Source: Escherichia coli (lineage in GTDB: Bacteria > Pseudomonadota > Gammaproteobacteria > Enterobacterales > Enterobacteriaceae). Taken from it: a stretch of DNA of 64,000 nt. The translations under genes and the position numbers were made by a program. The stretch lies in NCBI RefSeq assembly GCF_011045215.1, contig NZ_CP049201.1; one strand, given 5' to 3'. This document shows, in pieces, positions 2,714-49,237 of this stretch. Below the pieces are notes generated by a model. It searched no databases and was not told where the DNA came from. It worked only from the letters and a program-made list of their open reading frames with translations. The stretch's first letter is position 1; each line of letters begins with the position of its first letter.

Positions 2714-2747
2714 CAGCCCGACGAACTGTTTCGCCGGGCTGATTTTT
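2714..2747. terminator. Hairpin (cagcccg / cgggctg) plus T-tract between convergent perM and focB
   Basis: 7-bp inverted repeat 2714-2720 / 2735-2741 followed by atttt; sits between two convergent stop codons. Confidence 0.45.
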
Positions 2748-3595
2748 CAGGATTCCTGACGTAAATAAATAGCCCGATAACAAATACTCACCAGCACTGC
2801 ACCGCCGATAATATTACCCAGCATCACCGGGAGCAGATTGGCGGTAATAAAATGGCTGACCGTCAGTGCAGGAAAATTGTCTGCGCTACTGTGCGCCAGT
2901 TGCCAGAAGGGGCGTGGGGCAAAATGGCGAATGGCAATGGCGAACGGAATCACAAACAAATTGGCGATACAGTGCTCAAAGCCACTGGCGACAAACAGGG
3001 TGATGGGCAAAATCATGGCGACGATTTTGTCGCATAATGAACGCCCGCAATAACTCATCCACAGCGCCAGGCAAACCATCAGATTGCACATAATGCCGAG
3101 GCTGACAGATTCAGTAAATGTATGATGCATTTTGCCCTCGGCGCAGTGTAAAACCGCGACTCCCCACATCGCGTTTTCACTCATCACCAGCCCGGAAAAC
3201 CAGATTAACAAACTGAAACAGGCAATACCTGCCAGATTACCGCAGGCCACCAGAAGTGCGTTAATCAGCCAAGTTCGCCAACTAATAACGCCCCGACTTT
3301 TTGCCATCACCGTCATTACCGACGAGGTGAACAGGCTGGTGCCGCAAACCGCCAGCAAAATAAAGCCGAGTGTAAAGCAAAGGCCGCCCACCAGATGGGT
3401 TAATGCCTGTGAAGACGGGGCATCGGCGATAACGGAAAGGTAAAAAGTAAATCCGATCGCCATAAACACGCCAGCGGACATCGCCATTAAAAAGACCGAC
3501 ACTTTACTGCGGGCAATTTTATGGGCGGCAATCCGTTCAGCGATTGCCGCTTTTCTGGCGCTCAACTGCAAGTCGAAAGAGAGTTTGTTTCTCAT
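2747..3595 (-). CDS. focB: Formate channel FocB (FNT family)
   Basis: 282-aa membrane ORF at the distal end of the hyf operon; length and position match FocB. Confidence 0.85.
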   Translation of the reverse strand: MRNKLSFDLQLSARKAAIAERIAAHKIARSKVSVFLMAMSAGVFMAIGFTFYLSVIADAPSSQALTHLVGGLCFTLGFILLAVCGTSLFTSSVMTVMAKSRGVISWRTWLINALLVACGNLAGIACFSLLIWFSGLVMSENAMWGVAVLHCAEGKMHHTFTESVSLGIMCNLMVCLALWMSYCGRSLCDKIVAMILPITLFVASGFEHCIANLFVIPFAIAIRHFAPRPFWQLAHSSADNFPALTVSHFITANLLPVMLGNIIGGAVLVSICYRAIYLRQES

Positions 3596-3616
3596 GCATA
3601 CTCCTGCAAAAGCAGA

Positions 3617-5632
3617 TTACAACACCTCGCGAACCGAGATCCCCAGACGCTGCATTCGTGACAGCAGCGTGGTGCGCTTCATCCCTAATCGTGTCGCCGC
3701 GCCACGGGGCCCGGCAACAATGCCATTGGTTTCTCGCAATACCTGAACAATGCGCTGACGTTCTTCTTCGTCATTCTCTGGCGTCGTCGGGTGCAGCAAC
3801 TGCGCCATTGAACTGCGAAGCGCTGAATCTTCATTTAGCGTCGGCAGTAAACGGCTTTGTCGGACATTTAGATGTAAATTCAGACTGTTACCACGAGTCA
3901 ACAGTACCGCCCGCTCAATCACGTTTTCCAGCTCGCGCACGTTGCCCGGCCAATCCCACGACATCAACTGGCGTAGTGCCTCGGTCGGGATGGCGTCAAT
4001 TGCGCGATTCATATGGCGCGCCATTTTTTGCGTGAAATGCTTTGCTAAAAGAGGGATATCTTCCGGACGATCGCGTAGCGGCGGCAATTCCAGTGGGAAG
4101 ACATTCAGGCGATAAAAGAGATCGCTGCGAAACTGGCGATCTTCAACCATTTGCCACAAATCACGGTTGGTGGCGGCAATGACTCTGACATTCACCGGGA
4201 TCGTTCTACTCCCGCCGAGACGCTCAATCTCCCGCTCCTGCAATACGCGCAGCAATTTAGGCTGAAGTTCTAACGGCAGATCGCCAATTTCATCGAGAAA
4301 CAACGTGCCGCCATCGGCAATTTCAAAACGACCACGATGGGTATTAATCGCACCAGTAAACGCCCCTTTGTCATGACCGAATAACTCACTTTCCAGAAGA
4401 CTGGCGGGGATGGCAGCGCAGTTGATTTTGACCAGCGGCTTGTCGCGTCGCGGGCTAAGTTGATGGATCGCTCTGGCGATCACCTCTTTGCCAGTTCCGG
4501 TTTCACCGCAAATCAACACCGTACTGTCGCTCTTCGCCACAATATCTACCTGCTGGAGCAGGTCTTCCATTGCCTGGCTTTGATAGATAATGTCACCGAC
4601 GCCCAGATTCGAAAGGAGCTGCTCGCTAAGCTGGTGGTTTTCTTGCTGCAAACTTTCCTGCAAATCGGTCATGCTACGCCAGGCATCGGCATTGCCAACG
4701 GCAATAGCGATGCGATCGGCTATGTGTTGTAGTAGCTGGCAGTTTTCCTCACGAAAGAGAGTGGAAGAGGTATGCGCCAGCAACAATGCACCCGGTGTAT
4801 GGTTGCCAAAGGTAAGCGGTATCAGGAGCGCAGATTCGCAGCCGTTAGATGCAAGTAAGAGTAATAACGGGTCGCGTTGCCAGAGAAACAGATCGTCTGC
4901 ACGGTGCGTCAAGGTCGGTTGTCGGGTTTGTAGCGTTTGTGTCAGCAATACACTGTCGCCAGGCATATTGCGTGGCAGACACGCACAATGTGAGGCAGAA
5001 AGATCGCTGCACCACAGGCTGAACTTCTCGTTCTTTCGATGATCGCCCAGTACCATACTGACTGAAGCCAGACCGAAAAAATGATGGATCTCACGAGCGA
5101 CGTCAGCGATCAGATCGTCGAGATCAAGATGTGACAGCACTGCATTAGTGATATCCACCAGTACCCGATGATGATCGCGATCTTTCTCCAGCAAACGCAG
5201 CGCCACCTGTTGTTCTTCATCATTGAGCCATGATTGCAGAACCGGGGTGATAATGCGTGCCAGCCAGTTAAACAGTGTGCAATCCTGGGGAGTAAAACGG
5301 CTGCCGTGGGTACGAATAAAGCGTAGCTCCGCCATTCCACTACTGCCGAGAAGGACGGCGTGACGCGAATAATCGACCATCTCGCCCTGATACTCTACTG
5401 TTGCCGTCACATCGCTGCCATCATCATGGTAGCGGTAATAGAAGTTGCTTTTGAGAACATGCAGTTCAATAAGTTGTACCGGGCTGAACGGCGGCGGCAG
5501 CGGGATGAAGGCGCGTAATAAAGACGCCTTGCCGTGTTTCTGCGCTAACCGCTCCGCGAGCATTCCGTTTACCGCTTCAATTGTTATTCCTTGCGGCGGG
5601 GCAAACATCGCCTCGTCTGACATAGCCATCAA
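3617..5632 (-). CDS. hyfR: Sigma54-dependent transcriptional activator HyfR (FhlA-like)
   Basis: 671-aa ORF with AAA+ Walker A GETGTGKE and the sigma54-contact motif GAFTGA ([15 protein letters not shown]). Confidence 0.9.
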
Positions 5633-5658
5633 CAGTCCTTATTAATGAGAAATCCTTC

Positions 5659-6072
5659 TCACGCAATTTTTCTGGCCATCAGATAGATGGCCGGTTCCTG
5701 CACAATTTCATCCAACAGATGAATGAATTGAATGCTACGCGCCTGCCACACAGACGTCGCGTCATCTGCCAGTGGCGCGAATGCCCGGGTCAACAGGGCG
5801 GTGTGGCTGGTGTCAATAACAATCTCACCAAAAGTCATCACCCCCAGCATCTTACGTCGGGCTTGCTCCTCTTCGACCAGTGCAAGCCAATCTTTGTATT
5901 CCGTCAGTGGGCAGCGGAAGGCGACATTCAGACAATCAATCACGCCAACGTGATGGCCGATAGCTAGCGAGTAATACATTACCTGAGAGCTGTGTTCCGG
6001 CATCTCGTCGCTACTGGCGACAAACTTTTTTCGCAGCGTCCAGAAAACAATTTCCCCGCACTCTTCAGTCAT
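5659..6072 (-). CDS. hyfJ: Hydrogenase-4 component J (HycH-like maturation factor)
   Basis: Track ORF 5659-6135; start trimmed to internal ATG ([10 protein letters not shown]...) to give the 137 aa expected for HyfJ. Confidence 0.75.
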
Positions 6073-6823
6073 GTAACCCCCGGAGTACGCGAAAGAGTTG
6101 CTGAACGATACTATTGAGACGTGGATCGTCGGCATCGCGCAACCAGGTGTTAACCCGATTTCCTGTAGGATCGTCGCTTAAATGGCGCAGGAGCCGATCG
6201 CAAATTTCTCGCCCCTGACGATAGCCCGCCAGCCGCCGCGCTTCTCGCTCAATGGCGATACGCTGTGATGGCGGGATCTGCGGCCACAACGGTTGCATAG
6301 TCACCCCGGTGGGATCGCGATAATCCACCGCGTGAATCTTCTGTTGCAGCAAACCGAGCGCCACGGCGAAACCGTGAATGGTGGCGGCCGGTGTTGGCGG
6401 GCAGCCGGGGATCCAAACATCAATGGGGACAATGGTGTCGCTGCCGCCCCAGACGCTGTAGAGATCGTGGAAAATACCGCCGCCGACGCCGCACGCGCCG
6501 TAGGAAACACAGATTTTATGATCGGGGGCAGACTCATACGCCCGAAGTGCAGGCATACGCATCGCCCGGGTGACTGCGCCAGTAAATAACAAAATATCGG
6601 CGTGACGCGGTGATGAAACAACCTTAATGCCAAAACGTTCTGCATCGAATACTGGTGTGATGGCGGCAAAAATTTCGATTTCACAGGCGTTGCAGCCACC
6701 GCAATCGACGCGATAAACGTAAGCCGAGCGACGGATATCCTGTAGCAAATGCCGCTTCATCTTTTGCGTTTGCTCGTCCAGCGTGATGGGCTGGCTGACA
6801 TGTTGTGTAAGCACTGGACTCAT
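6065..6823 (-). CDS. hyfI: Hydrogenase-4 small subunit HyfI (NuoB-like Fe-S subunit)
   Basis: 252-aa ORF with a conserved cysteine pattern ([10 protein letters not shown]...CPPTP) typical of NuoB/HycG-like subunits. Confidence 0.85.
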
Positions 6824-7365
6824 AGCTGCTCCTTAGCCACCAGCGGTACATCTGTATCGTCGTTGATCAGCGTCGCGCGTTGTTTGCACTCGGGGCAGAC
6901 GCTCGCTTGCGCCCGCAACATTTCGCGGTTTTGTGGCGCATTTTGTTGCTGTGCCAACAATTCAGCAGCCAGTGCGACGGTTTTTTGCGGGGCAAACGGG
7001 CGTTCGCAACGGCTGCAACGTTGTAGATGGAACGTCGCGCGGGTATAGAGATCGGCTTTATTGGTGACGGTCAGTTCAAAGTTATTGGTAAGCTGGATGG
7101 CTCTGGTCGGGCACACTTCTTCACAACGTCCGCAGTAAATACAACGCCCCAGATAGAGCTGCCAGGTGCGCGAATTTTGCTGGTCGTCGGTCTGGATAGT
7201 CAGCGCATTTGCCGGACAAGCACAGGCGCAGGCACCGCAGGCAATACATTGGCTGGGCATCAGGTCCGGTTTCCCGCGAAAGCCTGGGCTGACCTCCAGT
7301 GGCGCGAAGGGATATTTCACCGTCGCGGTTCCGGCGCGCATAATAGTTTTCAGTAACTTCAGCAT
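6820..7365 (-). CDS. hyfH: Hydrogenase-4 4Fe-4S ferredoxin-type subunit HyfH
   Basis: 181-aa ORF with two CxxCxxCxxxCP ferredoxin motifs. Confidence 0.85.
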
Positions 7366-7374
7366 CTTCTGTCC

Positions 7375-9090
7375 TTACTTCAGCGGCGAACGGTTACGAT
7401 CAATGCCGTAGCGTTCGATCTCTTTATACGGCACGGTTTTTGACTGGCGCTTGCGCACATCAACCAGCGTCACACGGTCGGTACAGGAGTAGCAGGGATC
7501 AAGGCTACCGATAATCAGCGGTGCGTCAGAAACGGTATTGCCGCGCAGCATGTAACGCAACACCGGCCAGTTGGCGTAGGTGGCGGCACGGCAGCGCCAG
7601 CGGAACAATTTTTGGTTATCACCGAGCATGCTCCAGTGCACGTCTTCACCGCGTGGCGCTTCAACAAAGCCCAGCGCGAATGCGTGAGGTTTATAGCTAA
7701 AGCCTTCGGTCAGCAGTGGGGTATCCGGCATGTTGTCGAGAGCAAATTCCAGCATTGCCAGCGAATCAAACGTCTCTTTGACACGGACCATCACGCGGGA
7801 GAAAACATCGCCGCCGGTGAAGGTAAACAGTGTTTTTGGAATATTGCCGTAGTCGGCGTAGGGGTGATCAAAGCGCAAATCACGGGCAAAACCACTGCCG
7901 CGGATCAGCGGCCCTACAGGGCTATAATCACGGGCGATTTGTCGGTCGAGAATGCCAATGCCCTGAGTGCGTTGTTCCATATTCGGCGTGGCAAGCAGCA
8001 TCTCTACCAGCTCCGACACGTCGGCGCGCATCTCGCGCACCAGTTTCAGCGTTTGCAGACGTTGCTCTTTGAGAATATCGCGGCGAACACCACCAATCAG
8101 ATTCAGACCGTAGGTTTTACGCGACCCGGTCAGCAATTCCGCCATCGTCATCGACTTTTCCCGCACGCGGAAAAATTGCATAAAGCCGGTATCAAAACCA
8201 ACAAAATGGCAGGAGAGGCCAAGGTTGAGCAAATGACTGTGTAGCCGTTCGACTTCCAGCAGAATCGAGCGAATGGTATGCGCTCGTTGCGGCACCTCAA
8301 TCCCCAGTGCATTTTCAACCGAGTTGGTATAGGCCACACTGTGGGCAAAACCGCAAATCCCACACACGCGGTCCGATAAGAAGGTCACTTCGTTGTAGCC
8401 CATCCGCGTTTCTGCCAGTTTCTCCATGCCGCGATGGACATAAAACAGACGGTAATCAGCATCGACAATTTGCTCGCCATCCACAAACAAGCGGAAGTGA
8501 CCCGGTTCATCGGAGGTGATATGCAGCGGGCCGACAGGGATCACCCGCGCATCGCTGTTGCCCTCATTGATAAACGGATACGTTTCGGAATCAGTCGTCG
8601 GTTCAGGGCGCAGTCGATAATCCATCGCATCTTTGCGCAGCGGATGCATATCTTCCGGCCAGTCATCGGGCAACACCAGGCGACGCTGATCCGGCAGGCC
8701 AACCGGAATCAGCCCGTACATATCGCGAATTTCTCGCTCGCCCCAGACCGCGGCAGGGACGCGCGGTGTGACTGACGGAAACTCCCGACTGTCGGCATCG
8801 ACCAGTGCCTTCACCACGATCCAGCATTTTTCGGCCCCTTCCATAGAAAGGGCATAATAAACCGCGTAATGACCGTTAAGTGTCCGCTCGTCGTTGCCAA
8901 ACAGGACCGGAAGCCAGCCATCATGTTGATAATAAAGATACTGTACAACGTCAGGCAGCAGATTGATTTTCACCGTAATGGTGACCTGTTCAGGCGTTTG
9001 TCGCTCTTCATCCAGCACCGCGCCGGGGAACTGCGTTTTCAGGGCGGCGAGAATCGCTTCGCCACGATTTGACGATGAATTAACGTTCAC
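7375..9090 (-). CDS. hyfG: Hydrogenase-4 large catalytic subunit HyfG (NiFe)
   Basis: Track ORF 7375-9135; probable GTG start at 9090 giving [14 protein letters not shown]...; NuoD/HycE-like; C-terminal DPCxxCxDR Ni-binding motif. Start uncertain. Confidence 0.8.
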
Positions 9091-10660
9091 TTTGTTTCTC
9101 CGAAACAGATGCGGTGCCTGAAGGCAAAAAATCATGCCAGGTGCTACGTTGTGCAGACAGGTCGTGCGTCCCTGAGAGGACTATAGTGGAAGCGCCCGCC
9201 AGGATCCTGATGACAGGTTGTGGAATATGCGTTCCCATCGCCAGCATCATGACCAGCAGAATCACCATTGGCGAGGTGGTCAACCAGCCGAGATCACCCC
9301 GGTTAACGGCCTGCGGCGGTTTCGCCATTAACACCCGCGCAGCCATCCGTACCAGGCCCGCCAGCACCAGCGTTAACAGCAATAACAGCAGGACGATAAT
9401 CAGCAGATGATTACGTGCCAGTCCGGCGGTAACGGTCATAAATTCGCTAAGAAAAATGTTGAAGGGCGGCATCCCTGCCAGCGCCAGCGCACCGCCGCCA
9501 AACAGCACGGCGGTAAATGGCATGATTTTAAGCATTCCGCAGACGACGTTGAGATCGCGCGTGCCGTACTTGAGCAGTACATTGCCGGAACCGCAGAACA
9601 GCAGCGTTTTTGCCAGACTGTGGTTTAAGGTGTGCAGCAGCGCGGCAAAAATTCCCAGCGGCCCGCCAATGCCTAGCGCCACCGCGACCAGTCCCATGTT
9701 CTCCACGCTGGAGTACGCCAGCAGACGCTTAATGTCCCGCTGTACCAGAATGAAAAATGCCGCCACGGCAACCGACAACATGCCGAAGATGAGCAACAAC
9801 CGGTTGGGGAAATCGCTGCCGATGGCCTGGCAAATAATGATGTAATAGCGAATCAGTACCAACAGCGCACAGTTCAGCAATACGGCGGAGAGTAGTGCGC
9901 TGACCGGACTCGGCGCTTCACTGTGAGCATCCGGCAGCCAGGCGTGCATGGGAAATAGCCCGGTTTTGGTACCAAAGCCAATTAGCACAAACACAAAGGC
10001 CAACAGCATTAATGTTGGATCAAGCAAGGACGATTGCTTAAGAACCTCGCTCCAGAATATCGCCATTTCTGCCTGCGGCATAACGCTGGCGGCGTTGGCG
10101 TATACCAGCACGGTACCGAACAGACCAAAAGCGACACCAACAGTACAAATAATGATGTACTTCCATGCTGCTTCCAGCGATGAACGCTGACCGTAAATGC
10201 CTACCAGAAACGCCGAGCTTAAGGTGGTGGCTTCGATCGCCGCCCACATCACAATCAGGTTATTGCTGGTAACAACCAGCAGCATGGTGAACAAAAACAG
10301 ATGGAAGAAACCGTAGTAATCGCACAGCGTAACGGGTGAAAGCTCGCCGTGCTCAACTTCATGACGCATGTAGCCAATCGAGTAAACACCGGTGAGAAAG
10401 CCAATCACACCAAGAATGGCGAGGAACAAACCGCCCAGACCATCAATATGAAGCCACAGTCCCGCAGCGAATATTTCTCCTGCATCAGCGGCAGTTTGGA
10501 CCACCCAGAGTGCCAGAATCAGCAGCAGTGTGATCCCTAAGCTATGTAATACTGTCACCGTGCGAGTCGCAGAGTGCCCTCGTTTCCGGCAGGCAAAACA
10601 GAGCAGCGAAAAAAGCAGCGGAGTGAGCAGGAGTAAAGCGAACATCACAGAATAACTCAT
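9080..10660 (-). CDS. hyfF: Hydrogenase-4 membrane subunit HyfF (NuoN/Mrp-antiporter-like)
   Basis: 526-aa polytopic membrane ORF in operon position. Confidence 0.85.
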
Positions 10661-10664
10661 CTCA

Positions 10665-11314
10665 TTATCCCTTCAGCGCGGTCAAGTTGTTCACGTCCAG
10701 CGTGCCGTGGGTACGCCATATTTTTCTTGCCAGTAACACCATCACAATGACGGCGAAGATGGCGTCGGTAGCGATACCTATTTCCACCAGTTCCGGTGCT
10801 CGCCAGGCAAGAAGCGCCAGCACCAGATGGGAGCCGTTTTCCATCAGGCAGTAACCAAAAATTTGCCGCAGGATATTGCGCTGGCTGACAATGCACAGCA
10901 GGCCAAGCAGAAAATGACCTAACGCTACCGCCAGCGCTGGTTTCAGCCCGGTAGCCATCGGTAGCTTCACGGGCTGAACGACAAATGCGCAAAGCAGGAC
11001 AATTAACGCGCGAGCAGTGCCATCATTGCCGGACCGAATAACGCTTTTTCCGGGATGTTCTGGGGAATATTTCGTGCAGCGTAAGTCATGATTAACGGTA
11101 CCAGCAGCACTTTGGTGATAAAGGCGCTGGCGGACCAGATCAGCAGTTGCTCTGCGGCGAACAGGCACGAGAGGGTGGCGAAAATAGACACCAGCACCAG
11201 TGACTGGCAGGCGTAAAATCCGCATGACAGGCGATAGCTTTTGACGCTAATCACAAACAGCGATGTCAGCATCATCAGTCCCGCCAGATTATTTACGATC
11301 ATAGAACCGGTCAT
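10665..11314 (-). pseudogene. hyfE: hyfE (hydrogenase-4 membrane subunit) interrupted by an apparent 1-nt frameshift near 11003-11012
   Basis: Track splits it into 11003-11314 (103 aa, ...GPAMMALLAR*) and an overlapping different frame 10665-11225 whose last 114 aa (ALIVLLCAF...TALKG) continue HyfE; 102+114 = the 216 aa I recall for intact HyfE; break lies in a gcgcgcg run. Confidence 0.6.
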
Positions 11315-11325
11315 TCATCATCTCC

Positions 11326-12765
11326 TTACTGCAACCAGGTCGCGGCGATTACGCTGGAAATCAGCGACATCACAATCAGTACAATCAGCACCAGGCGCAT
11401 TGACCCTGGCAGCGGTGCGGCATCGGCGACGGCCTCGCTCGGTTTGCCGGGGACGACGCGACCAAACCAGCGAATAAACCAGGCGAAACTGGCGACCGAT
11501 TCAATCATCAGCAGAATCATGGCGGGCAGCAGGATCCAGTACTCCACTGACAACGCAAAACCGGCAGCAAACAGCGGGAATTTACTGAAGAAGCCGTTGA
11601 ACGGCGGTACGCCGGTAATCGCCAGCGCTGCCACGCAGAAACCCACGCCTGGCAACGGCAGGGTGTGCAATACGCCACGCAGACGCGGCAACAAGCGCGT
11701 GCCGCAGCTGTAACTCAGCGCACCTGCTACAAGGAAAAACAGGCTTTTAGCGAACGCGTGGTTGACGATGTAGGCGATGCTGCCCTCCAGCGCCAGCCGC
11801 GAGCCGAAGATGGAGAGCGACAAACCGAAGAACATCCAGCCAAGTTGAGTGATGGTCGACCAGGCCAGCAACCGCTTCATATCCTGCTGTGGCAAATACA
11901 TCAGAAATCCATAAAGAATGGTGACCAGTGCCATGACCATGCCAACGCCGCCAATCACATGCGGGATATTGCCGCCGTCGATAATGGCGCGGGCAAAAAT
12001 GTAAACGCCCACTTTCACCATCGATGCGGCGTGGAGATAGGCACTGATCGGTGTTGGTGCTTCCATTGCATCCGGTAGCCACGCTTGCATCGGTAGCTGG
12101 GCCGATTTCCCCCACGCGGCAAACAGGATGCCGCCATAAACCAGATAACGTGCGTCGCCGTGTAACTCGCTCATCGCGCTAAGCGCAAACGTTCCGGTCT
12201 GCAAAAACAGCGTGGCGGCGGCAAGATACAACCCCAACGAGCCGATATGAGTGATAAGTAACGCTTTTAGTGCTGAACGCTGCGCTTTATCGCTCTGGTA
12301 ATAACTGATCAACGCCCAGGAGCAGCCGCCCGTAATTTCAAAAAACAACAACTGACCGAGCAGCGTCGAGGAGAGTACCAGTCCCGCCATCGCGCCGATA
12401 AACACCAGCAAAAATGCGTAATAACGATTCGTGCCGTTATGCGGGTGTTCGCGATTTTTATCCGTCAGATAACCCGTGGAGTAGATCGTGACCAGCAAAC
12501 CGAGAAACACCACCACAAACAGAATCAGCGTACTCACGCGATCAATGACCAGGCCAAACAATGCCACATCCCCCACGTTGACCAACGTCAACGTGACGGC
12601 AACTTTATCGGCCTGATAAAACGCGGAGATCAGCGACAACATGCACAGTGTGGTCAGCGCGGCGAACAAAACCCCCCATTCGGCGGCCCGACGTTGTGGC
12701 GAAAACGAAACGACCAGTGCGCCGATAAAAGGCAGCATTAACGTCGTCAGAGCAAGATTTTCCAT
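11326..12765 (-). CDS. hyfD: Hydrogenase-4 membrane subunit HyfD (NuoL/M-like)
   Basis: 479-aa polytopic membrane ORF. Confidence 0.85.
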   Translation of the reverse strand: MENLALTTLMLPFIGALVVSFSPQRRAAEWGVLFAALTTLCMLSLISAFYQADKVAVTLTLVNVGDVALFGLVIDRVSTLILFVVVFLGLLVTIYSTGYLTDKNREHPHNGTNRYYAFLLVFIGAMAGLVLSSTLLGQLLFFEITGGCSWALISYYQSDKAQRSALKALLITHIGSLGLYLAAATLFLQTGTFALSAMSELHGDARYLVYGGILFAAWGKSAQLPMQAWLPDAMEAPTPISAYLHAASMVKVGVYIFARAIIDGGNIPHVIGGVGMVMALVTILYGFLMYLPQQDMKRLLAWSTITQLGWMFFGLSLSIFGSRLALEGSIAYIVNHAFAKSLFFLVAGALSYSCGTRLLPRLRGVLHTLPLPGVGFCVAALAITGVPPFNGFFSKFPLFAAGFALSVEYWILLPAMILLMIESVASFAWFIRWFGRVVPGKPSEAVADAAPLPGSMRLVLIVLIVMSLISSVIAATWLQ

Positions 12766-12781
12766 ATTCCGTCAGTGCTCC

Positions 12782-13729
12782 TTACAGACCGGTTAACCAG
12801 AAGACCCATGCAAGCGCAGCAAGGCTGAAGCCAAGCCAGGTCACATGGTGAATGAGTAAAAAACGCCCGCGTGCCAGCGTGTTTTCTGCGATAGAGGCCA
12901 GTACAAAAATCAGCAAAACCTTGAGCAGCGTAACGACAAGTGAAGTCAGCAGGCAGGCGAGAGAAAGTTCTTGCGCGCGCCCAAAGGGCAGAAACAGGGC
13001 CACAAACAGTGCTGCCATCACGACCTGTTTCAGCCCCAGCCCCCATTTCGCCAGCGCCAGCCCGGCACCGGAATATTCTGTCAGCGGGCCTTCCTGTACT
13101 TCCTGTTCTGCTTCAGCAACATCAAAGGGAATTTTTCCCATCTCAATGAAGCAGGCAAAACCACAGGCCAGTAACGCCAGTACGGTGGTTAGCGGCGAGT
13201 TCCAGCCCATCGCCAGCGTATTGCTGATCATCTCGATATGCGTGGAATCCGCTATCAGTGCCAATACCAGCAGTGAGAGAATGAGCATGGGTTCGACCAG
13301 AATGCCGAGCGTCAACTCGCGACTGGCACCGACTCCCGCAAACGGGCTTCCGGTATCCAGCCCGGAAAGAGCAAAGAAAAAACGAAACAGGGCAAGAAGA
13401 TAGATAAGGGTGATCAGATCGCCGCCGCCCGCAAAAGGGGAAACGGTAATAAATAGTGGTAGGGCCATCGCCAGCACCAGCATGCTGCTGATTAATACCC
13501 ACGGCATCAGGCGGAACATCAGACCTGAAGATGTCGGCGCAACTTCCTGGCGTTTAAACAGTTTGTGGATATCGCGATAATCCTGCCAGATCCCCGGTCC
13601 GCGGCGGGAGTGCATTCGCGCGCGTATCTGCCGGGAAATACCCGTAAAAAGTGGGGTTAGCATCAGCAGAATCACGGCCTGTGCTAACGCAAAAATGACC
13701 AGATATCCGTCGCACAGAGTTTGTCTCAT
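12782..13729 (-). CDS. hyfC: Hydrogenase-4 membrane subunit HyfC (NuoH-like)
   Basis: Track ORF 12782-13750; trimmed to ATG giving MRQTLCDGYLVIF... (315 aa). Confidence 0.8.
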   Translation of the reverse strand: MRQTLCDGYLVIFALAQAVILLMLTPLFTGISRQIRARMHSRRGPGIWQDYRDIHKLFKRQEVAPTSSGLMFRLMPWVLISSMLVLAMALPLFITVSPFAGGGDLITLIYLLALFRFFFALSGLDTGSPFAGVGASRELTLGILVEPMLILSLLVLALIADSTHIEMISNTLAMGWNSPLTTVLALLACGFACFIEMGKIPFDVAEAEQEVQEGPLTEYSGAGLALAKWGLGLKQVVMAALFVALFLPFGRAQELSLACLLTSLVVTLLKVLLIFVLASIAENTLARGRFLLIHHVTWLGFSLAALAWVFWLTGL

Positions 13730-13739
13730 GGTGATTTCC

Positions 13740-15758
13740 TTAGACGGCAATAGCGATTAGCAGCACAACCAGTGCGGCGACCACATACAGGCAATAGAGA
13801 CGAAAGTCGCCGCTTTGCAGATGCTGTATTTCTTTGGCCAGCCGTTGGGTGGCGCTCACGATGGGGCGGATCACCCGCTCATCCCAGAAGGGTTCTGTGC
13901 TCTGAGCCCTGGCGGTGACGTGCGCAAGACCTTTATTTAGCCTCAGCGTAGGGTCGAGCTGTTGTCGTAGACGAAATAGCGCAGAGAAGACCACACGCAG
14001 CGGCTGCATCACGCCATTGCCTGACGGGGCCATCGCATTTTCCCAGCCGTAGCCGCATGCCCAGGCATCTCCTGTGCGACGAAACGCTGCGCGGCGCGAA
14101 CGACACCACAGCCAGTAAAGGCCAGGCAGCAAAGGCATCGCCAGTAGTAACAGCAACAGTAATGAGGGAGTGACCCGTGTATGAAACGTGCCGGGTACAA
14201 GTGCTATTCCGCTGGCGACAGTGACGGGAGGGGTATCGGTAAACGCATGGGCAATATGCATTATCTTCGGTGCCAGCCAACTGGCACTAAGCGCAATTAA
14301 TACGCAGAGTGCCGCGAGCAGTAGCATGGCGACGATCATCGTATTTGGCACTTCCTGTGCCTCTTCAGCGTGTGTACTGCGCGGCGCACCACAGAAAGTA
14401 ATACCGTACATTTTTACGAAGCACATTACTGCCAGCCCACCAGTGACTGCCAGCATTACCATAGCAATAGGACCCGCAAGTTGTAGCGCTACGGCTTCCA
14501 CACGACTTAGTGAGAACAGCGACTGCCAGGTGTACCATTCGCTGATAAAACCATTCAGCGGAGGAATGGCTGATATCGCGAGGCAACCAATCAGGCATGC
14601 TGCGGCTGTCCACGGCATCCGTTTTGCCAGTGCCCCCATTTTTTCCATGTCGTGGGTATGCAAACGCGAAATAATCGCGCCCGCGCCGAGAAATAGCAGC
14701 CCTTTGAACAGCGCATGGTTGAGCAGATGAAACAGTGCGCCGAGCAGTCCAACCACGGTGAGCAGCGGGTCGTGCAGTGACAGACCGACCATCGCCACAC
14801 CGACTGCCAGCAAAATAATGCCGACGTTTTCGACGGTACTCCAGGCCAGCAGCCGTTTGATATCCTGTTCCGCCAGCGCATATAGCACGCCCAGGAGCGC
14901 GGAGATTGCGCCGATCGCCATCACCAGAATGCCCCACCACAGAGGCAAACCCGTTTGCGCCAGCAGATCCATCGCTACTTTCAGGATGCCGAAAATACCG
15001 ATTTTGACCATTACGCCAGACATCAACGCCGAAGCGTGCGATGGTGCGGCAGGGTGAGCGCGCGGCAACCAGCTGTGCAACGGCATCATCCCGGCTTTCG
15101 CGCCAAAACCGAAAAAGGCCAGCAGGAACACCGCCGACGCCAGCCCCGGAGAAAGTGAAAGCGTGCGGAAACTGGCAAAATCGAGGCTGCCGCTTTCGCG
15201 CCCCATCAGCAAGAAGGCGATCATAATCAGCACCGATCCGGCGTGGGCGATAAAAAAGTAGAGCATGCCAGCGTTGATTGACGTTTTATCCTGCCTGGCA
15301 ATGACCAGAAACCAGGAAGACAGCGACATCATTTCAAACAGCACGATGAACCAAAAAGCGTTGTCCATCACCAGCAGGGCAACCATCGATGCGATGAAAA
15401 GATTCATAAAGAAGCCCATCGCCGCCGCGCCTTTGCCCTCGTATTCGCGCATATAAGTCAATGAATAGAGCGAACAAACCACCACAAGCAAGGAGATAAC
15501 CAGCACCATAAATGCCGAGAGGCTATCTATTCGCAGGGTTAAATCGGCAAATTCAAAAGGGGTGGCAAAACGGGCGACTAAAGTTACGCCTGCATGTAAT
15601 TGCGTAATTCCGCTGATGATGCCAATCACGCCGCCCACCAGCGATGTGATGCCGGAAAGCTTAATAGCCAGTCTGTCCAGACCGAGTAAAAACAGCGAAG
15701 CCAGACTGGCAAACAGATAGAGGATCAGCGACCAGGTTAATAATTGCAGGGCATCCAT
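13740..15758 (-). CDS. hyfB: Hydrogenase-4 membrane subunit HyfB (NuoL-like)
   Basis: 672-aa polytopic membrane ORF. Confidence 0.85.
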   Translation of the reverse strand: MDALQLLTWSLILYLFASLASLFLLGLDRLAIKLSGITSLVGGVIGIISGITQLHAGVTLVARFATPFEFADLTLRIDSLSAFMVLVISLLVVVCSLYSLTYMREYEGKGAAAMGFFMNLFIASMVALLVMDNAFWFIVLFEMMSLSSWFLVIARQDKTSINAGMLYFFIAHAGSVLIMIAFLLMGRESGSLDFASFRTLSLSPGLASAVFLLAFFGFGAKAGMMPLHSWLPRAHPAAPSHASALMSGVMVKIGIFGILKVAMDLLAQTGLPLWWGILVMAIGAISALLGVLYALAEQDIKRLLAWSTVENVGIILLAVGVAMVGLSLHDPLLTVVGLLGALFHLLNHALFKGLLFLGAGAIISRLHTHDMEKMGALAKRMPWTAAACLIGCLAISAIPPLNGFISEWYTWQSLFSLSRVEAVALQLAGPIAMVMLAVTGGLAVMCFVKMYGITFCGAPRSTHAEEAQEVPNTMIVAMLLLAALCVLIALSASWLAPKIMHIAHAFTDTPPVTVASGIALVPGTFHTRVTPSLLLLLLLAMPLLPGLYWLWCRSRRAAFRRTGDAWACGYGWENAMAPSGNGVMQPLRVVFSALFRLRQQLDPTLRLNKGLAHVTARAQSTEPFWDERVIRPIVSATQRLAKEIQHLQSGDFRLYCLYVVAALVVLLIAIAV

Positions 15759-16375
15759 TAGCGTTGCTCCTGAGTGAGGGAAAGGGGATCCTCCCCGCCA
15801 TTGGCAAACCAGCTTGCGGCAAGGCGCTGTTTTTCTTTCATCTGGCGTTGCAGTCTATCGTCGGTGATCAGCCGTAACGCCTGATTCGGGCAAGCGCGAA
15901 CGCAGGCCGGACCTTCTGGCAAGAAATCACACAGGTCGCATTTCACCGCGACGGTCTGGACACCCGGTTCCCAGCGCAGCAAAGCATGTTGGGTTGGCGC
16001 GTTTTCTTCGCCGTCTTTGAGTGAGCCTTCAGCCTGAAAAACATATTGCGCAGGGGCATTCACCGGACGGCTTCCTGAAGCGCTGATTGCGCCAAATGGG
16101 CAGACCACGGCGCAAAGCTTGCAGCCAATACAGAGGCTTTCGTTGAGTTGGATCGCATCATCCCTCTGGGAGATGGCATTGACCGGGCAGACCTGCAGGC
16201 ACGGGGCTTCCTCACAGTGATGACACACGACAGGGGCAGTGAGTGTTGACGTCTTCGCCAGGGCCAGGCGCGGGTGTTGCTGTAAACCTTGCGTTTTATG
16301 CACGTCCGAACAGGCAGCGAGACAGGTATTACATCCTATACACCACAGTGGTTCGGCCACCACAAAGCGGTTCAT
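15758..16375 (-). CDS. hyfA: Hydrogenase-4 4Fe-4S ferredoxin subunit HyfA
   Basis: Track ORF 15758-16414 trimmed to MNRFVVAEPLWCIGCNTC (205 aa); multiple CxxCxxCxxxCP clusters. Confidence 0.85.
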   Translation of the reverse strand: MNRFVVAEPLWCIGCNTCLAACSDVHKTQGLQQHPRLALAKTSTLTAPVVCHHCEEAPCLQVCPVNAISQRDDAIQLNESLCIGCKLCAVVCPFGAISASGSRPVNAPAQYVFQAEGSLKDGEENAPTQHALLRWEPGVQTVAVKCDLCDFLPEGPACVRACPNQALRLITDDRLQRQMKEKQRLAASWFANGGEDPLSLTQEQR

Positions 16376-16412
16376 GTCGGCTCCTTGAAAATGATATGAA
16401 ACATTGCATTTC

Positions 16413-16430
16413 ATATTGCATAAAGGATGC
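16413..16430 (-). promoter_or_regulatory. Sigma54 (-24/-12) type promoter candidate for the hyf operon
   Basis: Minus strand reads TGGCATcctttATGCA (GG and GC elements at consensus spacing) about 40 nt upstream of hyfA ATG; operon ends with sigma54 activator hyfR. Confidence 0.5.
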
Positions 16431-16627
16431 CAGTATGATTAATTTAATATATTCAATAAGTTATGAATTAACTGGATTCTGAACGGTACAAAAATGATGG
16501 TCATTAACGTTCAGCAAAAAATGGATTCGACACCCGTGTCGCAGGGGAAAGCGAGAATGTGATCTTGATCACGATAAGTGAGGTGTGCTGACCGCAAGCG
16601 CAGCCAGCACGGAATGGAGCAAAGTAA

Positions 16628-17098
16628 TCAGGCGTGTTCTTTCAGCCAGTTCAGCACAACGTCGTGGTGATTGCTGGTTTTGAAATCGTCAAAGACATGT
16701 TCGATTTTGCCATCAGCGTCAATCAGGAAGCTGATGCGATGAATACCATCGTAGGTTTTGCCCATGAAGGACTTTTCACCCCAGACGCCGAATTGTTCGC
16801 ACACCTGGTGGTCCTCATCAGACAGGAGCGTAAAGTTAAGCAGCTCTTTTTCCGCAAAACGGGAGAGTTTTTCGGGTTTATCGGTGCTGATACCCAGCAC
16901 ATCAACGCCCGCTTTTTTCAACTCATCCATGTTATCGCGTAAGCCGCAGGCCTGTACGGTACAGCCGGGGGTCATGGCTTTCGGGTAGAAATAAACCAGA
17001 ACACGCTGTCCCTGGAAGTCGGTCAAATTAACTTGTTCTCCGTCTTGATCCGGCAAGCTAAATTTCGGTGCGATATCACCGGCTTTCAGTGGATTCAT
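16628..17098 (-). CDS. bcp: Thiol peroxidase Bcp (peroxiredoxin)
   Basis: 156-aa ORF with peroxiredoxin active-site context (FYPKAMTPGCT). Confidence 0.9.
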   Translation of the reverse strand: MNPLKAGDIAPKFSLPDQDGEQVNLTDFQGQRVLVYFYPKAMTPGCTVQACGLRDNMDELKKAGVDVLGISTDKPEKLSRFAEKELLNFTLLSDEDHQVCEQFGVWGEKSFMGKTYDGIHRISFLIDADGKIEHVFDDFKTSNHHDVVLNWLKEHA

Positions 17099-30115: not shown

Positions 30116-31816
30116 TTACATCAACTGACTTTCCTCACCCTCCGCAGAGCGAAAGCTAATACTCACTAACGTGCCGCCGCCGGAAGGTTGTGAAAAAGTC
30201 AGCGTCCCACCCAGACGTTCCGCGCGTTCGCGCATGATATTCAGACCATAATGACCTTCGGGTTCTTTCGGTTCACCGATACCAATCCCGTTATCACGGA
30301 TATAAACCGTGTGATTGCCGTCCGGCGCGGTGACGCAACTGACGGCGATTTCGCTGGCGTTGGCGTGCTTCATCGCATTCAGCACCGCTTCGCGAATAAT
30401 TTGCAACAAATGCACCTGCATTTGCGCATCCAGTGCCAGGGTTGGCAGACGGCAGTCGAGGGTCAGTTTGGCGCTGGTTTGATTTTGTAACGTATCCAGC
30501 ATTTCCCTCAACGCGGAGGGGAGATCCGCCTGCTGCAGCGTCAGGCGAAAAGTAGTCAACAGCTCGCGTAACTGCCGATAAGCATCATTCAACGCCTGGG
30601 AAAAATCGGCCATGATACTTTGTGCGGTGGCGTTATCTTCCGGTATCGAACGCTTCAGTAACGTCAACTGGATACGTAAGTAAGAAAGTACCTGAGCCAG
30701 CGAGTCGTGCAATTCGCGGGCGATGGTTGCACGTTCTTCCATCAACAATAACTGCTGAAAATGCTTCTGCGCCTGATTAAAGTACAAACCACGTCCCAGC
30801 ATCGACGAAACGCTGTTAAGCAGCGGTTCTGATGATGAAACGTGACTATTTTGCCAGTGCAGTTCGCCGTAAACCGTCTCTTGCATTGTCACCGGTAAAA
30901 TCTGCATCGGCAATTCCGGGTTTGGTTGCCCTTCGCTAATCCGCCAGTTTTCACCGACATTTAACTCCAGATATTCAGCCGCTTCATTGTCGCGAACAAT
31001 CTGCAAAATATGGCGGAAACAATGCACATCAATCTGGCTGGTGTTCAGCGCCTGCGAACACTGATACAACACCTCCAGACGACGCTTGGCCTCGTGGAGA
31101 TCGCGGGTCTTTTCTTCTACTGACGCTTCCAGCGAACGGTACAATTTATGCAGCTCGCTCGACATCTGGTTAAAGGTTTTTGCAAGTAGACCAAGCTCAT
31201 TCGGCAGACTGGTATCCAGCGGCGGCGAGTCGAACTGCCCGTGTTCAATACGCTGACTGGCGGTAACCAGCTGATTCAGCGGGGCAACCACCTGATGGCG
31301 TATGCGGCGCAAAGTAAAAAAGACCAGCGTGAAAATACCGATGCCGCCAGCCAGGGAAATCGCCACCACCAGCAGCATTTTGCGTTCAGCGTAGTGCTGT
31401 AAAGCCAGCACGAACAGGTCTATCTGATTAACATAATTATTAATATTGGCCTGATACCACGGCAAATCGCCCTTGCTGAGCCGATTATTCATCTCCAGCC
31501 AGTTGGCATTCAGATGCGCATAGCGGGTTTTTACTGCTTCTGGCACATACCAGACGTTGAGATTGGTTAATACTGGTGAATGCAGTGCCTGCTGAAATAA
31601 CTGGCGATGTGCATTGAGTTGTGGACTGCCACTTTGCAAGTCGTAGCCCAGGCGGTAACTCTGCATACGCAGCGATCCGGCAATATTGATAGCCTCAGCG
31701 TCGCGCAAACTGCTCGCCAGAGTTAGCAGAGCGATACCCGTGGAAAGAATCGACAGCAGCACAATGTAAAAAAAGGCCCGGGCCAGACTGGCCGAGACGG
31801 GTCGTTTAACAATCAC
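30116..31816 (-). CDS. narQ: Nitrate/nitrite sensor histidine kinase NarQ
   Basis: Track ORF trimmed to GTG start giving (M)IVKRPVSASLARAFFYIV (566 aa); HAMP plus histidine kinase (ELHDSLAQ H-box). Confidence 0.9.
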   Translation of the reverse strand: MIVKRPVSASLARAFFYIVLLSILSTGIALLTLASSLRDAEAINIAGSLRMQSYRLGYDLQSGSPQLNAHRQLFQQALHSPVLTNLNVWYVPEAVKTRYAHLNANWLEMNNRLSKGDLPWYQANINNYVNQIDLFVLALQHYAERKMLLVVAISLAGGIGIFTLVFFTLRRIRHQVVAPLNQLVTASQRIEHGQFDSPPLDTSLPNELGLLAKTFNQMSSELHKLYRSLEASVEEKTRDLHEAKRRLEVLYQCSQALNTSQIDVHCFRHILQIVRDNEAAEYLELNVGENWRISEGQPNPELPMQILPVTMQETVYGELHWQNSHVSSSEPLLNSVSSMLGRGLYFNQAQKHFQQLLLMEERATIARELHDSLAQVLSYLRIQLTLLKRSIPEDNATAQSIMADFSQALNDAYRQLRELLTTFRLTLQQADLPSALREMLDTLQNQTSAKLTLDCRLPTLALDAQMQVHLLQIIREAVLNAMKHANASEIAVSCVTAPDGNHTVYIRDNGIGIGEPKEPEGHYGLNIMRERAERLGGTLTFSQPSGGGTLVSISFRSAEGEESQLM

Positions 31817-32021: not shown

Positions 32022-34001
32022 ATGAATCGTTTTATTATGGCCAACAGTCAGCAATGTCTGGGTTGTCATGCTTGTGAAATCGCTTGTGTCATGGCTCACA
32101 ATGATGAGCAACATGTCCTGAGCCAACATCATTTTCATCCCCGAATTACGGTTATCAAACATCAGCAGCAACGTAGTGCAGTGACCTGTCACCATTGTGA
32201 AGATGCGCCCTGCGCCCGTAGCTGCCCTAATGGCGCAATCAGCCACGTTGATGACAGCATTCAGGTCAATCAGCAAAAGTGTATTGGCTGTAAATCCTGC
32301 GTGGTGGCCTGTCCGTTTGGTACGATGCAAATCGTCCTGACACCCGTCGCAGCGGGCAAAGTTAAAGCCACGGCGCATAAATGCGACCTTTGTGCAGGGC
32401 GCGAAAACGGTCCTGCCTGTGTCGAGAATTGCCCGGCGGACGCGCTGCAACTGGTCACTGATGCCGCACTCTCCGGCATGGCGAAATCCCGCCGCTTGCG
32501 CACCGCACGTCAGGAACATCAACCGTGGCATGCCAGTACCGCTGCACAAGAAATGCCGGTAATGAGTAAAGTCGAACAAATGCAGGCAACGCCCGCGCGT
32601 GGCGAGCCGGATAAACTGGCGATTGAAGTGCGCAAAACCGGTTTTGATGAAATTTATCTGCCATTCCGTGCCGATCAGGCACAACGGGAAGCCTCGCGCT
32701 GCCTTAAATGCGGCGAGCACAGCGTTTGTGAATGGACCTGCCCGCTGCATAACCATATACCGCAGTGGATTGAACTGGTGAAAGCCGGAAACATCGACGC
32801 CGCCGTCGAGCTTTCTCACCTGACCAACACCCTGCCGGAAATTACCGGACGCGTTTGTCCGCAAGACCGTTTGTGTGAAGGTGCCTGTACTATTCGCGAT
32901 GAGCACGGTGCGGTAACTATCGGCAACATTGAACGCTACATTTCAGATCAGGCGTTGGCGAAAGGTTGGCGTCCTGACTTAAGCCATGTCACCAAAGTGG
33001 ACAAGCGGGTGGCGATTATCGGTGCTGGTCCGGCAGGGCTGGCCTGTGCGGATGTTCTGACCCGCAATGGCATGGCGGTGACGGTGTACGATCGCCATCC
33101 AGAAATCGGTGGCTTGCTCACTTTCGGCATTCCTTCTTTCAAACTGGATAAATCCCTGCTGGCACGCCGTCGGGAAATCTTCAGCGCGATGGGGATTCAC
33201 TTCGAACTCAATTGTGAAGTGGGTAAAGATGTCTCTTTGGATTCGCTTTTGGAACAATACGACGCGGTCTTCGTTGGCGTAGGCACTTACCGTTCCATGA
33301 AAGCGGGTTTACCCAATGAAGATGCGCCGGGCGTTTATGACGCGCTGCCGTTCCTCATCGCCAACACTAAACAGGTGATGGGGCTCGAAGAGCTACCGGA
33401 AGAGCCGTTTATCAATACCGCCGGACTTAACGTCGTGGTACTGGGCGGCGGCGACACCGCGATGGACTGTGTGCGTACTGCGCTGCGCCACGGCGCGAGT
33501 AACGTCACCTGCGCTTATCGTCGTGATGAAGCTAACATGCCAGGCTCGAAGAAAGAGGTGAAGAACGCCCGCGAAGAGGGGGCCAACTTCGAATTTAACG
33601 TCCAGCCGGTGGCGCTTGAGCTGAATGAACAAGGTCACGTTTGCGGGATTCGTTTCCTGCGTACGCGTCTTGGCGAGCCGGATGCCCAGGGGCGTCGGCG
33701 TCCAGTACCGGTGGAAGGCAGTGAATTTGTCATGCCAGCCGACGCGGTGATTATGGCGTTTGGCTTCAATCCGCACGGGATGCCGTGGCTGGAGTCGCAC
33801 GGTGTAACGGTAGACAAATGGGGCCGCATCATCGCGGATGTGGAAAGCCAGTACCGTTACCAGACCACCAATCCGAAAATCTTCGCCGGTGGCGACGCCG
33901 TGCGTGGTGCGGATCTGGTGGTTACCGCAATGGCAGAAGGACGTCATGCGGCACAGGGGATTATTGACTGGCTGGGGGTAAAATCAGTCAAATCTCACTG
34001 A
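32022..34001 (+). CDS. aegA: Fe-S/FAD-binding oxidoreductase AegA (GltD-like)
   Basis: 659-aa ORF with N-terminal 4Fe-4S clusters and a GltD-like NAD(P)/FAD domain; divergent from narQ. Confidence 0.85.
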   Translation: MNRFIMANSQQCLGCHACEIACVMAHNDEQHVLSQHHFHPRITVIKHQQQRSAVTCHHCEDAPCARSCPNGAISHVDDSIQVNQQKCIGCKSCVVACPFGTMQIVLTPVAAGKVKATAHKCDLCAGRENGPACVENCPADALQLVTDAALSGMAKSRRLRTARQEHQPWHASTAAQEMPVMSKVEQMQATPARGEPDKLAIEVRKTGFDEIYLPFRADQAQREASRCLKCGEHSVCEWTCPLHNHIPQWIELVKAGNIDAAVELSHLTNTLPEITGRVCPQDRLCEGACTIRDEHGAVTIGNIERYISDQALAKGWRPDLSHVTKVDKRVAIIGAGPAGLACADVLTRNGMAVTVYDRHPEIGGLLTFGIPSFKLDKSLLARRREIFSAMGIHFELNCEVGKDVSLDSLLEQYDAVFVGVGTYRSMKAGLPNEDAPGVYDALPFLIANTKQVMGLEELPEEPFINTAGLNVVVLGGGDTAMDCVRTALRHGASNVTCAYRRDEANMPGSKKEVKNAREEGANFEFNVQPVALELNEQGHVCGIRFLRTRLGEPDAQGRRRPVPVEGSEFVMPADAVIMAFGFNPHGMPWLESHGVTVDKWGRIIADVESQYRYQTTNPKIFAGGDAVRGADLVVTAMAEGRHAAQGIIDWLGVKSVKSH

Positions 34002-48060: not shown

Positions 48061-49237
48061 ATTGCAGACCGCGCTCTTTCAGGCGTTCGATACCCTGAAT
48101 CTGCAACGGGTAAAAACATTTAGCGTTCCACCGGTGACGCTTTGCGGTCCGGGCTCGGTGAGCAGTTGCGGACAGCAAGCGCAAACGCGTGGGCTGAAAC
48201 ATCTGTTCGTGATGGCAGACAGCTTTTTGCATCAGGCAGGGATGACCGCCGGGCTGACGCGTAGCCTGGCCGTTAAAGGTATCGCCATGACGCTCTGGCC
48301 ATGTCCGGTGGGCGAACCGTGCATTACCGACGTGTGTGCAGCCGTGGCGCAGTTGCGTGAGTCAGGTTGTGACGGGGTGATCGCATTTGGCGGCGGCTCG
48401 GTGCTGGATGCGGCGAAAGCCGTGGCGTTGCTGGTGACGAACCCGGATAGCACGCTGGCAGAGATGTCAGAAACCAGCGTTCTGCAACCGCGCTTGCCGC
48501 TGATTGCCATTCCAACTACCGCCGGAACCGGCTCTGAAACCACCAATGTAACGGTGATTATCGACGCGGTGAGCGGGCGCAAGCAGGTGTTAGCCCATGC
48601 CTCGCTGATGCCGGATGTGGCGATCCTCGACGCCGCATTGACCGAAGGTGTGCCGTCGCATGTCACGGCGATGACCGGCATTGATGCGTTAACCCATGCC
48701 ATTGAAGCATACAGCGCCCTGAACGCTACACCGTTTACCGACAGTCTGGCGATTGGTGCCATTGCGATGATTGGCAAATCGCTGCCGAAAGCGGTGGGCT
48801 ACGGTCACGACCTTGCCGCGCGCGAGAGCATGTTGCTGGCTTCATGTATGGCGGGAATGGCGTTTTCCAGTGCGGGTCTTGGGTTGTGCCACGCGATGGC
48901 GCATCAGCCGGGCGCGGCGCTGCATATTCCGCACGGTCTCGCGAACGCTATGTTGCTGCCAACGGTGATGGAGTTTAACCGGATGGTTTGTCGTGAACGC
49001 TTTAGTCAGATTGGTCGGGCACTGCGAACTAAAAAATCCGACGATCGTGACGCTATTAACGCGGTAAGTGAGCTGATTGCGGAAGTTGGGATTGGTAAAC
49101 GACTGGGCGATGTTGGCGCGACATCTGCGCATTACGGTGCATGGGCGCAGGCCGCGCAGGAAGATATTTGTCTGCGCAGCAACCCGCGTACCGCCAGCCT
49201 GGAGCAGATTGTCGGCCTGTACGCAGCGGCGCAATAA
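48050..49237 (+). CDS. eutG: Iron-containing alcohol dehydrogenase EutG
   Basis: Trimmed to MQNELQTALFQAFDTL (395 aa); overlaps eutJ 3' end. Confidence 0.85.
   Translation: MQNELQTALFQAFDTLNLQRVKTFSVPPVTLCGPGSVSSCGQQAQTRGLKHLFVMADSFLHQAGMTAGLTRSLAVKGIAMTLWPCPVGEPCITDVCAAVAQLRESGCDGVIAFGGGSVLDAAKAVALLVTNPDSTLAEMSETSVLQPRLPLIAIPTTAGTGSETTNVTVIIDAVSGRKQVLAHASLMPDVAILDAALTEGVPSHVTAMTGIDALTHAIEAYSALNATPFTDSLAIGAIAMIGKSLPKAVGYGHDLAARESMLLASCMAGMAFSSAGLGLCHAMAHQPGAALHIPHGLANAMLLPTVMEFNRMVCRERFSQIGRALRTKKSDDRDAINAVSELIAEVGIGKRLGDVGATSAHYGAWAQAAQEDICLRSNPRTASLEQIVGLYAAAQ

Follow-up and report, generated by a model that had tools for sequence, protein, structure and literature searches.

A -24/-12 element upstream of hyfA in an Escherichia coli strain, very probably the known sigma-54 promoter PhyfA of the hydrogenase-4 operon

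Introduction

DNA looping and ATP-driven promoter opening are the established mechanism of enhancer-binding proteins. In the formate regulon the FhlA-activated promoters hycA, hypA, fdhF and hydN carry, like hyf, their -24/-12 element 20-41 nt ahead of the gene, and share with hyf CGWCA/TGWCG-type boxes about 90-140 nt upstream. Unlike these promoters, hyf also has a distal CRP site and a paralogous activator of its own, HyfR; with a published score of 10.5, against 12.4 for hycA and 14.1 for hypA, it has the weaker -24/-12 element. The hyf promoter of Proteus mirabilis is also described: its reporter activity is reduced in rpoN and fhlA mutants and induced by anaerobiosis, and in the same organism formate significantly induced fdhF (PMC7658346). 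Like E. coli, P. mirabilis has predicted RpoN and FhlA sites 5′ of hyfA, but no hyfR is described in its operon, and the upstream region can be aligned with that of E. coli only at the motifs.

In E. coli, both the literature and EcoCyc have covered the hyf promoter for about two decades, including its regulators and its dependence on sigma-54, and binding maps on the genome scale agree. The title of a 2002 report by Skibinski names FhlA and HyfR as regulators of the hyf operon, the start reportedly being mapped there to about 30 nt upstream of hyfA, and that of a 2004 report by Self calls hyf a ‘silent operon’. In K-12 sigma-54 ChIP-seq data, OS23 is a peak whose downstream gene is hyfA; it has the plus-strand motif ATGGCATCCTTTATGCA, a predicted start 31 nt from hyfA, an occupancy score (fold above threshold) of 16, and EcoCyc status ‘C’, i.e. 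experimentally confirmed (Bonocora 2015, PMC4591121 Table 1); the same paper stresses that binding sites are not necessarily functional promoters. In genomic SELEX with RpoN holoenzyme the bcp/hyfA spacer reached 92% of the top peak when the holoenzyme was used alone, and was the highest peak (100%) with NtrC (Shimada 2021, PMC8743547). Expression of hyf in K-12 is nevertheless described by its ‘poor native expression levels’ (PMC7384014), so occupancy does not imply strong activity.

Here we analyse the corresponding spacer in a 64,000 nt stretch of E. coli chromosome (the window), in which an earlier note had placed a sigma-54-type promoter upstream of hyfA.

Results and discussion

The bcp-hyfA spacer

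Positions 16376-16627 are exactly the 252-nt spacer between bcp and hyfA. A 401-nt query across the region finds a match, with bcp and hyfA annotated beneath, in 5424 of 5426 complete E. coli genomes, the best at 99.5% identity and K-12 strain DH1 at 97.8%. The genes and the leader, all on the minus strand, are arranged as follows.

16628-17098, minus strand: bcp, directly upstream of the spacer
16376-16405, minus strand: short 5′ leader, with the Shine-Dalgarno sequence AAGGAG at 16386-16381
15758-16375, minus strand: hyfA, first gene of the operon, 205 aa, ATG at 16375-16373
down to about 2747, minus strand: remainder of hyfABCDEFGHIJR-focB
3617-5632, minus strand: hyfR, sigma-54 enhancer-binding protein with GAF, Sigma54_activat and AAA lid domains

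The RefSeq form of hyfA likewise has 205 aa and a start equivalent to 16375. A start at the ATG at 16414 (218 aa), taken from a mechanical list of open reading frames, was rejected as an artefact, as this ATG precedes the predicted transcription start and is without a Shine-Dalgarno sequence. Within the leader, AAGGAGCC.ACATG is invariant in Escherichia, Citrobacter and Klebsiella indica in an alignment of the spacers. An Rfam scan of 16200-16800 found no known RNA element, the sole match, PhrS on the other strand, reaching 13.6 bits where the gathering score is 37.

The -24/-12 element: position, spacing and chance

The spacer contains, on its minus strand and in the context ...aatcataCTGGCATCCTTTATGCAatatgaaatgcaatgtttcatatcattttcAAGGAGccgacATG, a 16-nt core TGGCATCCTTTATGCA at 16432-16417, which with one further 5′ base forms the candidate promoter element.

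16417-16433, minus strand: sigma-54 -24/-12 element CTGGCATCCTTTATGCA, with GG at 16431/16430 and GC at 16419/16418
16406, minus strand: predicted +1, placed from the -12 GC, 31 nt 5′ of the hyfA ATG

The earlier note had read this element as TGGCAT-N6-ATGCA at 16413-16430 on the hyf strand. The motif itself is real, but its letters and coordinates need correction: the N6 form has no match in the window, and the actual motif, TGGCAT-N5-ATGCA, has a single one, at 16417-16432 (minus), 2-4 nt from where it had been placed. The claim of -24/-12 spacing holds, with an exact GG-N10-GC in which GG occupies -25/-24 and GC -13/-12. Taking the GC as -13/-12 puts the probable +1 at 16406; the start rule of Bonocora 2015, 19 nt downstream of the motif centre, gave a distance to hyfA of 31 in their data. 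The element is thus intergenic and in sense orientation, with its predicted start shortly 5′ of the hyfA ATG.

In its letters the element is only a moderate match to the consensus TGGCACG-N4-TTGCW, with three mismatches. It is consequently missing from the list of consensus matches with at most two mismatches, of which the window holds 15 against 16.3 expected, without enrichment; the loose pattern TGGCA-N7-TGCA is found twice against 1.05 expected. We built a leave-one-out matrix from Bonocora 2015 Table 1, using its 41 intergenic-sense ChIP-seq sites other than hyfA. No 17-mer on either strand of the window scores higher with it than the element, whose 15.16 bits place it above the 25th percentile of the training sites and below their median. 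The Barrios 186-promoter matrix (as printed in PMC7658346) ranks it 9th of 127,970 positions. Shuffled 64-kb windows contain on average 1.18 sites that score as well or better with the leave-one-out matrix, so the motif score by itself is not significant in 64 kb, while on the sense strand of the 252-nt spacer about 0.002 such sites are expected (an estimate from the shuffle rate). Significance therefore rests on position, conservation and published binding data.

Several other sites in the window were seen in these scans. Five further 17-mers score 13-14 bits with the leave-one-out matrix, at 9600-9616 (minus), 49113-49129 (plus), 33722-33738 (minus), 62605-62621 (plus) and 3792-3808 (minus); two of these lie in hyf genes and are sense-oriented. 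Bonocora 2015 lists none of the five as a high-stringency ChIP-seq site, and their number is that predicted by chance. Separately, ACGGTACAATTTATGCA at 31136-31152 (plus) exactly matches IA19, an intragenic antisense sigma-54 ChIP-seq site in narQ (PMC4591121 Table 2), the only other high-stringency sigma-54 site with a K-12 coordinate in the estimated range of the window.

Comparison with PhyfA of K-12

The 16-nt core in the window is identical to that of OS23, and the only difference in the 17-mer is a C in place of A at its first base; the exact OS23 17-mer ATGGCATCCTTTATGCA is present in DH1, a K-12 strain. PhyfA of K-12 has the same locus and core, the same 31-nt distance between start and hyfA, and shares with the window the CRP palindrome, the activator box and the conserved block described below. 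The window strain differs from it by the C for A at -26, immediately 5′ of TGGC, and by three substitutions between -28 and -43. With the motif, exact spacing and position, cross-genus conservation, intact HyfR and identity with published sites all seen in this analysis, we hold with high confidence that the element is PhyfA, the known sigma-54 promoter of the hydrogenase-4 operon hyfABCDEFGHIJR-focB, in another E. coli strain. Occupancy by sigma-54 and by CRP comes from the K-12 or ETEC literature, and would carry over to the window by sequence identity; dependence of the hyfA promoter on rpoN is likewise documented for the identical K-12 core and may be expected here.

These data bear directly on the reading that the motif arose by chance in an AT-rich spacer and plays no role. 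Three consensus mismatches, and a rate of about 1.2 equal or better sites per shuffled 64-kb window, are what such a reading would draw on, but it is contradicted by the ChIP-seq and gSELEX occupancy by sigma-54 of the identical core, by the layout of the element with activator box, IHF site and activator gene, which is the expected one, and by the conservation described in the following section, in which GG and GC and the distance to the ATG are strictly kept (53 of 66 loci in sense orientation against 0 of 66 antisense). We regard a chance match as extremely improbable, and occupancy and conservation as having already refuted it.

Conservation across genera

A search with HyfA of a collection holding one genome per species gave 68 loci, all in other genera, at 44-73% protein identity, of which 66 were usable. 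Escherichia and Shigella are not among them and the best match is Citrobacter amalonaticus (73%), which suggests that the source species is missing from, or unmatched in, that collection; the comparison within E. coli uses a separate set of genomes. At 53 of the 66 hyfA-like loci the 120 nt 5′ of the start codon hold a sense sigma-54 site scoring 11 bits or more (median best score 16.2), as against none of 66 antisense controls and one of 66 coding segments. Predicted starts are mostly 28-55 nt from the ATG; the closest relatives, Citrobacter and K. indica, have ATGGCATCCTTTGTGCA as their site, at a distance of 28-31 nt. This conserved sense site, together with K-12 ChIP-seq and gSELEX signals on the identical core, bears out the earlier note in its central proposal of a sigma-54-type promoter upstream of hyfA.

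When the spacers of E. coli, Citrobacter and K. indica are aligned, discrete footprints emerge with diverged sequence between them, namely the -24/-12 element, an IHF-like site, a 24-bp block, a CGACA...TGNCGA box and a CRP site. Beyond the -24/-12 element the upstream features are these.

16451-16463, minus strand: IHF-like site TAACTTATTGAAT, one mismatch to the consensus YAANNNNTTGATW, centre about -51
16489-16512, minus strand: most conserved upstream block GAACGTTAATGACCATCATTTTTG, 24 bp, near-invariant as GAACGTTAATGACCATCAYTTTTG, -106 to -83
16526-16541, minus strand: palindromic FhlA/HyfR-type box CGACACGGGTGTCGAA, -135 to -120, centre about -128.5
16558-16573, minus strand: CRP site CGTGATCAAGATCACA, centre -159.5
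16585-16610, minus strand: GC-rich hairpin GTGCTGGCTGCgcttGCGGTCAGCAC, just 3′ of the bcp stop, inverted repeat I4, no U-run

Probable upstream activator sites and HyfR

The palindromic box, of the form CGACAC-N3-TGYCGA at 16541-16526, is conserved in the Citrobacter/K. indica alignment. It closely resembles CGTCACTAGTGTCGA upstream of hydN, and resembles also the TCGACA/TGTCG-rich upstream regions of hyc/hyp and fdhF. Hexamer enrichment was measured between -200 and -45 at the 54 loci with a sigma-54 site (53 in other genera, plus the window) and in 53 control segments. Of the three most enriched pairs, TCGACA/TGTCGA occurs at 45 of the 54 loci and in 5 of the 53 controls, CGACAC/GTGTCG at 37 and in 3, and TCGTCA/TGACGA at 33 and in none. 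This enrichment, and the recurrence of CGWCAY-N3-TGWCGA at about -100 to -140 across genera, indicate that the box belongs to the FhlA/HyfR family of enhancers. A published 13-site FhlA matrix was of little use as a discriminator of the box and was set aside as too weak: it gives the CGACAC palindrome only 4.7 bits and prefers the CRP palindrome, its best match in the spacer, which itself reaches only about the 90th percentile of random pieces. Also rejected as the main reading was that CGACACGGGTGTCG and a T-run, which are terminator-like, form the bcp terminator, because the box family recurs 5′ of hyfA-like genes in many genera and because Citrobacter and K. indica keep the sequence, but not the pairing or the T-run.

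The 24-bp block resembles ATGACATCGTTTTT in the hydN upstream region, and hyfA-like loci show enrichment of the hexamers AATGAC and CCATCA in their upstream zone. The block is probably part of the FhlA/HyfR upstream activating sequence, the identity of its binding protein being suggested by this likeness; alternatively GAACGTTAATGACCATCATTTTTG could be an enhancer specific to HyfR and separate from the FhlA-type box. Downstream of the block, the IHF-like site lies in a conserved segment CATAAC..A.TTGA.T, which fits the consensus perfectly in three of five Citrobacter/K. indica sequences, and its sequence makes 16451-16463 a candidate site for IHF. Box, block and IHF-like site thus provide an upstream activating sequence with an intervening putative bend site, although which protein binds which element, and the pairing of activator with box, we infer from sequence likeness.

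A cognate activator is encoded in the same operon. The hyfR reading frame is intact and includes the sigma-54 interaction domain; its best NCBIfam match is FhlA, below the cut-off, as expected for the paralogue HyfR, and it is followed by focB. This intact FhlA-like frame at 3617-5632 agrees with the proposal in the earlier note that HyfR is the operon’s own sigma-54 activator.

Other repeats were seen around the promoter. ATTGCAT occurs twice on the plus strand, at 16403-16409, overlapping the predicted start, and at 16415-16421, overlapping the -12 element. The duplication, to which the earlier note had drawn attention, is real but carries little weight: of 2000 dinucleotide shuffles of the spacer, 488 (24%) contain a direct 7-mer repeat within 20 nt, consistent with chance, and in the alignment neither Citrobacter nor K. 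indica keeps the start-proximal copy, so we rejected the duplication as a regulatory element on grounds of chance and of its lack of conservation outside E. coli. Two inverted repeats, I2 (CTGAACGTTA/TACCGTTCAG, 16514-16479), which flanks the conserved 24-bp block, and I5 (ATATGAAA/TTTCATAT, 16416-16394), which brackets the predicted start, were rejected likewise, being E. coli-specific with partner arms that are not conserved in Citrobacter.

The CRP site and the bcp 3′ end

The CRP site CGTGATCAAGATCACA has nine of the ten core positions of TGTGA-N6-TCACA, and exactly this motif underlies the CRP ChIP-seq peak that has been assigned to hyfA in ETEC H10407 (PMC4287617); hyfA is also among the known CRP targets recovered by genomic SELEX (PMC3105977). 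In the alignment a CRP-type palindrome is confined to Escherichia and Citrobacter, three Citrobacter isolates having the perfect form TGTGACTAATATCACA in the same place. An FNR site has been predicted at hyfA and found unoccupied (PMC3688515); it may be this same CRP palindrome.

Between the CRP site and bcp, the GC-rich hairpin forms an 11-bp stem in the minimum-energy fold (z = -3.2 for the whole 157-nt region) and is likely the 3′-end structure of bcp. Three Citrobacter isolates have at the same position a hairpin of other sequence that is followed by a T-run, which suggests a conserved bcp 3′-end structure that would be a weaker terminator in E. coli. As the E. coli hairpin has no U-run, a small amount of bcp read-through is possible.

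Such read-through enters a different account of the locus, in which sigma-54 holoenzyme binds the site but the site is essentially non-productive, the scant hyf transcription coming from bcp or from an unrecognised sigma-70 promoter. The first source is conceivable to some extent given the hairpin, whereas a sigma-70 scan of the spacer gave no sigma-70-like promoter on the hyf strand. The poor native expression of hyf in K-12, and the ‘silent operon’ of Self’s 2004 title, would fit a non-productive site; FhlA and HyfR, the regulators of the operon according to Skibinski’s 2002 title, would not. Although binding sites need not be functional promoters, as Bonocora 2015 cautioned, the hyf promoter is listed by EcoCyc as experimentally confirmed, and that of P. 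mirabilis depends on rpoN and fhlA (PMC7658346). The sigma-54 site, activator box and IHF site are moreover kept at fixed distances across genera, which points to selection for function. We therefore consider a non-productive site very unlikely, and prefer a working sigma-54 promoter.

Predicted operation of the promoter

For the preferred reading, a functional PhyfA, the following course of events is predicted. Sigma-54 RNA polymerase would bind CTGGCATCCTTTATGCA (16433-16417, minus) as a closed complex, the step that ChIP and gSELEX have shown for K-12, and an enhancer-binding ATPase, FhlA or HyfR, would occupy CGACACGGGTGTCGAA at -135 to -120 and probably also the conserved block at -106 to -83. 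Aided by the bend at the IHF-like site at about -51, the activator would reach the polymerase through a DNA loop, and ATP hydrolysis would then open the promoter for transcription from about 16406. CRP at -159.5 may add catabolite control.

Strain variation and significance

The four substitutions that distinguish the window from K-12 cluster at 16433-16450 (minus), between the IHF-like site and the -24 element. The C at -26, giving CTGGCAT, raises the score with the ChIP-derived matrix from 13.6 bits in K-12 to 15.2. A 56-nt promoter-proximal probe is present in 4027 of the 5426 E. coli genomes, and at least 80% of the 401-nt query is covered in 4297; by these matches about a quarter of complete E. 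coli genomes are without the hyf promoter. The exact 56-nt haplotype of the window is rare, only 6 of the 4027 genomes matching it at 99% identity or more, against 1179 at 95-99% and 2840 that are K-12-like. That this haplotype makes hyf less ‘silent’ than in K-12 is conceivable, though we think it doubtful.

Rearrangements are also seen among E. coli strains. Where a genome matches the 401-nt query only at its bcp end, as in strain W224N, yfgO directly follows bcp, and the whole hyfA-focB block (window 2747-16627) is missing. Strain Res13-Lact-PEB14-36 has a 14-bp tandem duplication CATCCTTTATGCAA inside the promoter, aligned to 16417-16432, and its intact TGGCATCCTTTATGCA is in the upstream copy, so that the -24/-12 element is 14 nt farther from hyfA.

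To a promoter already well described, the present analysis adds its exact coordinates in the window, a case that is carried by position and cross-genus conservation and not by motif score, and a comparative view of three upstream features, namely activator box, IHF-like site and CRP site. Loss of the operon in about a quarter of E. coli genomes, the rare haplotype and the 14-bp duplication could bear on why hydrogenase-4 is silent in K-12.
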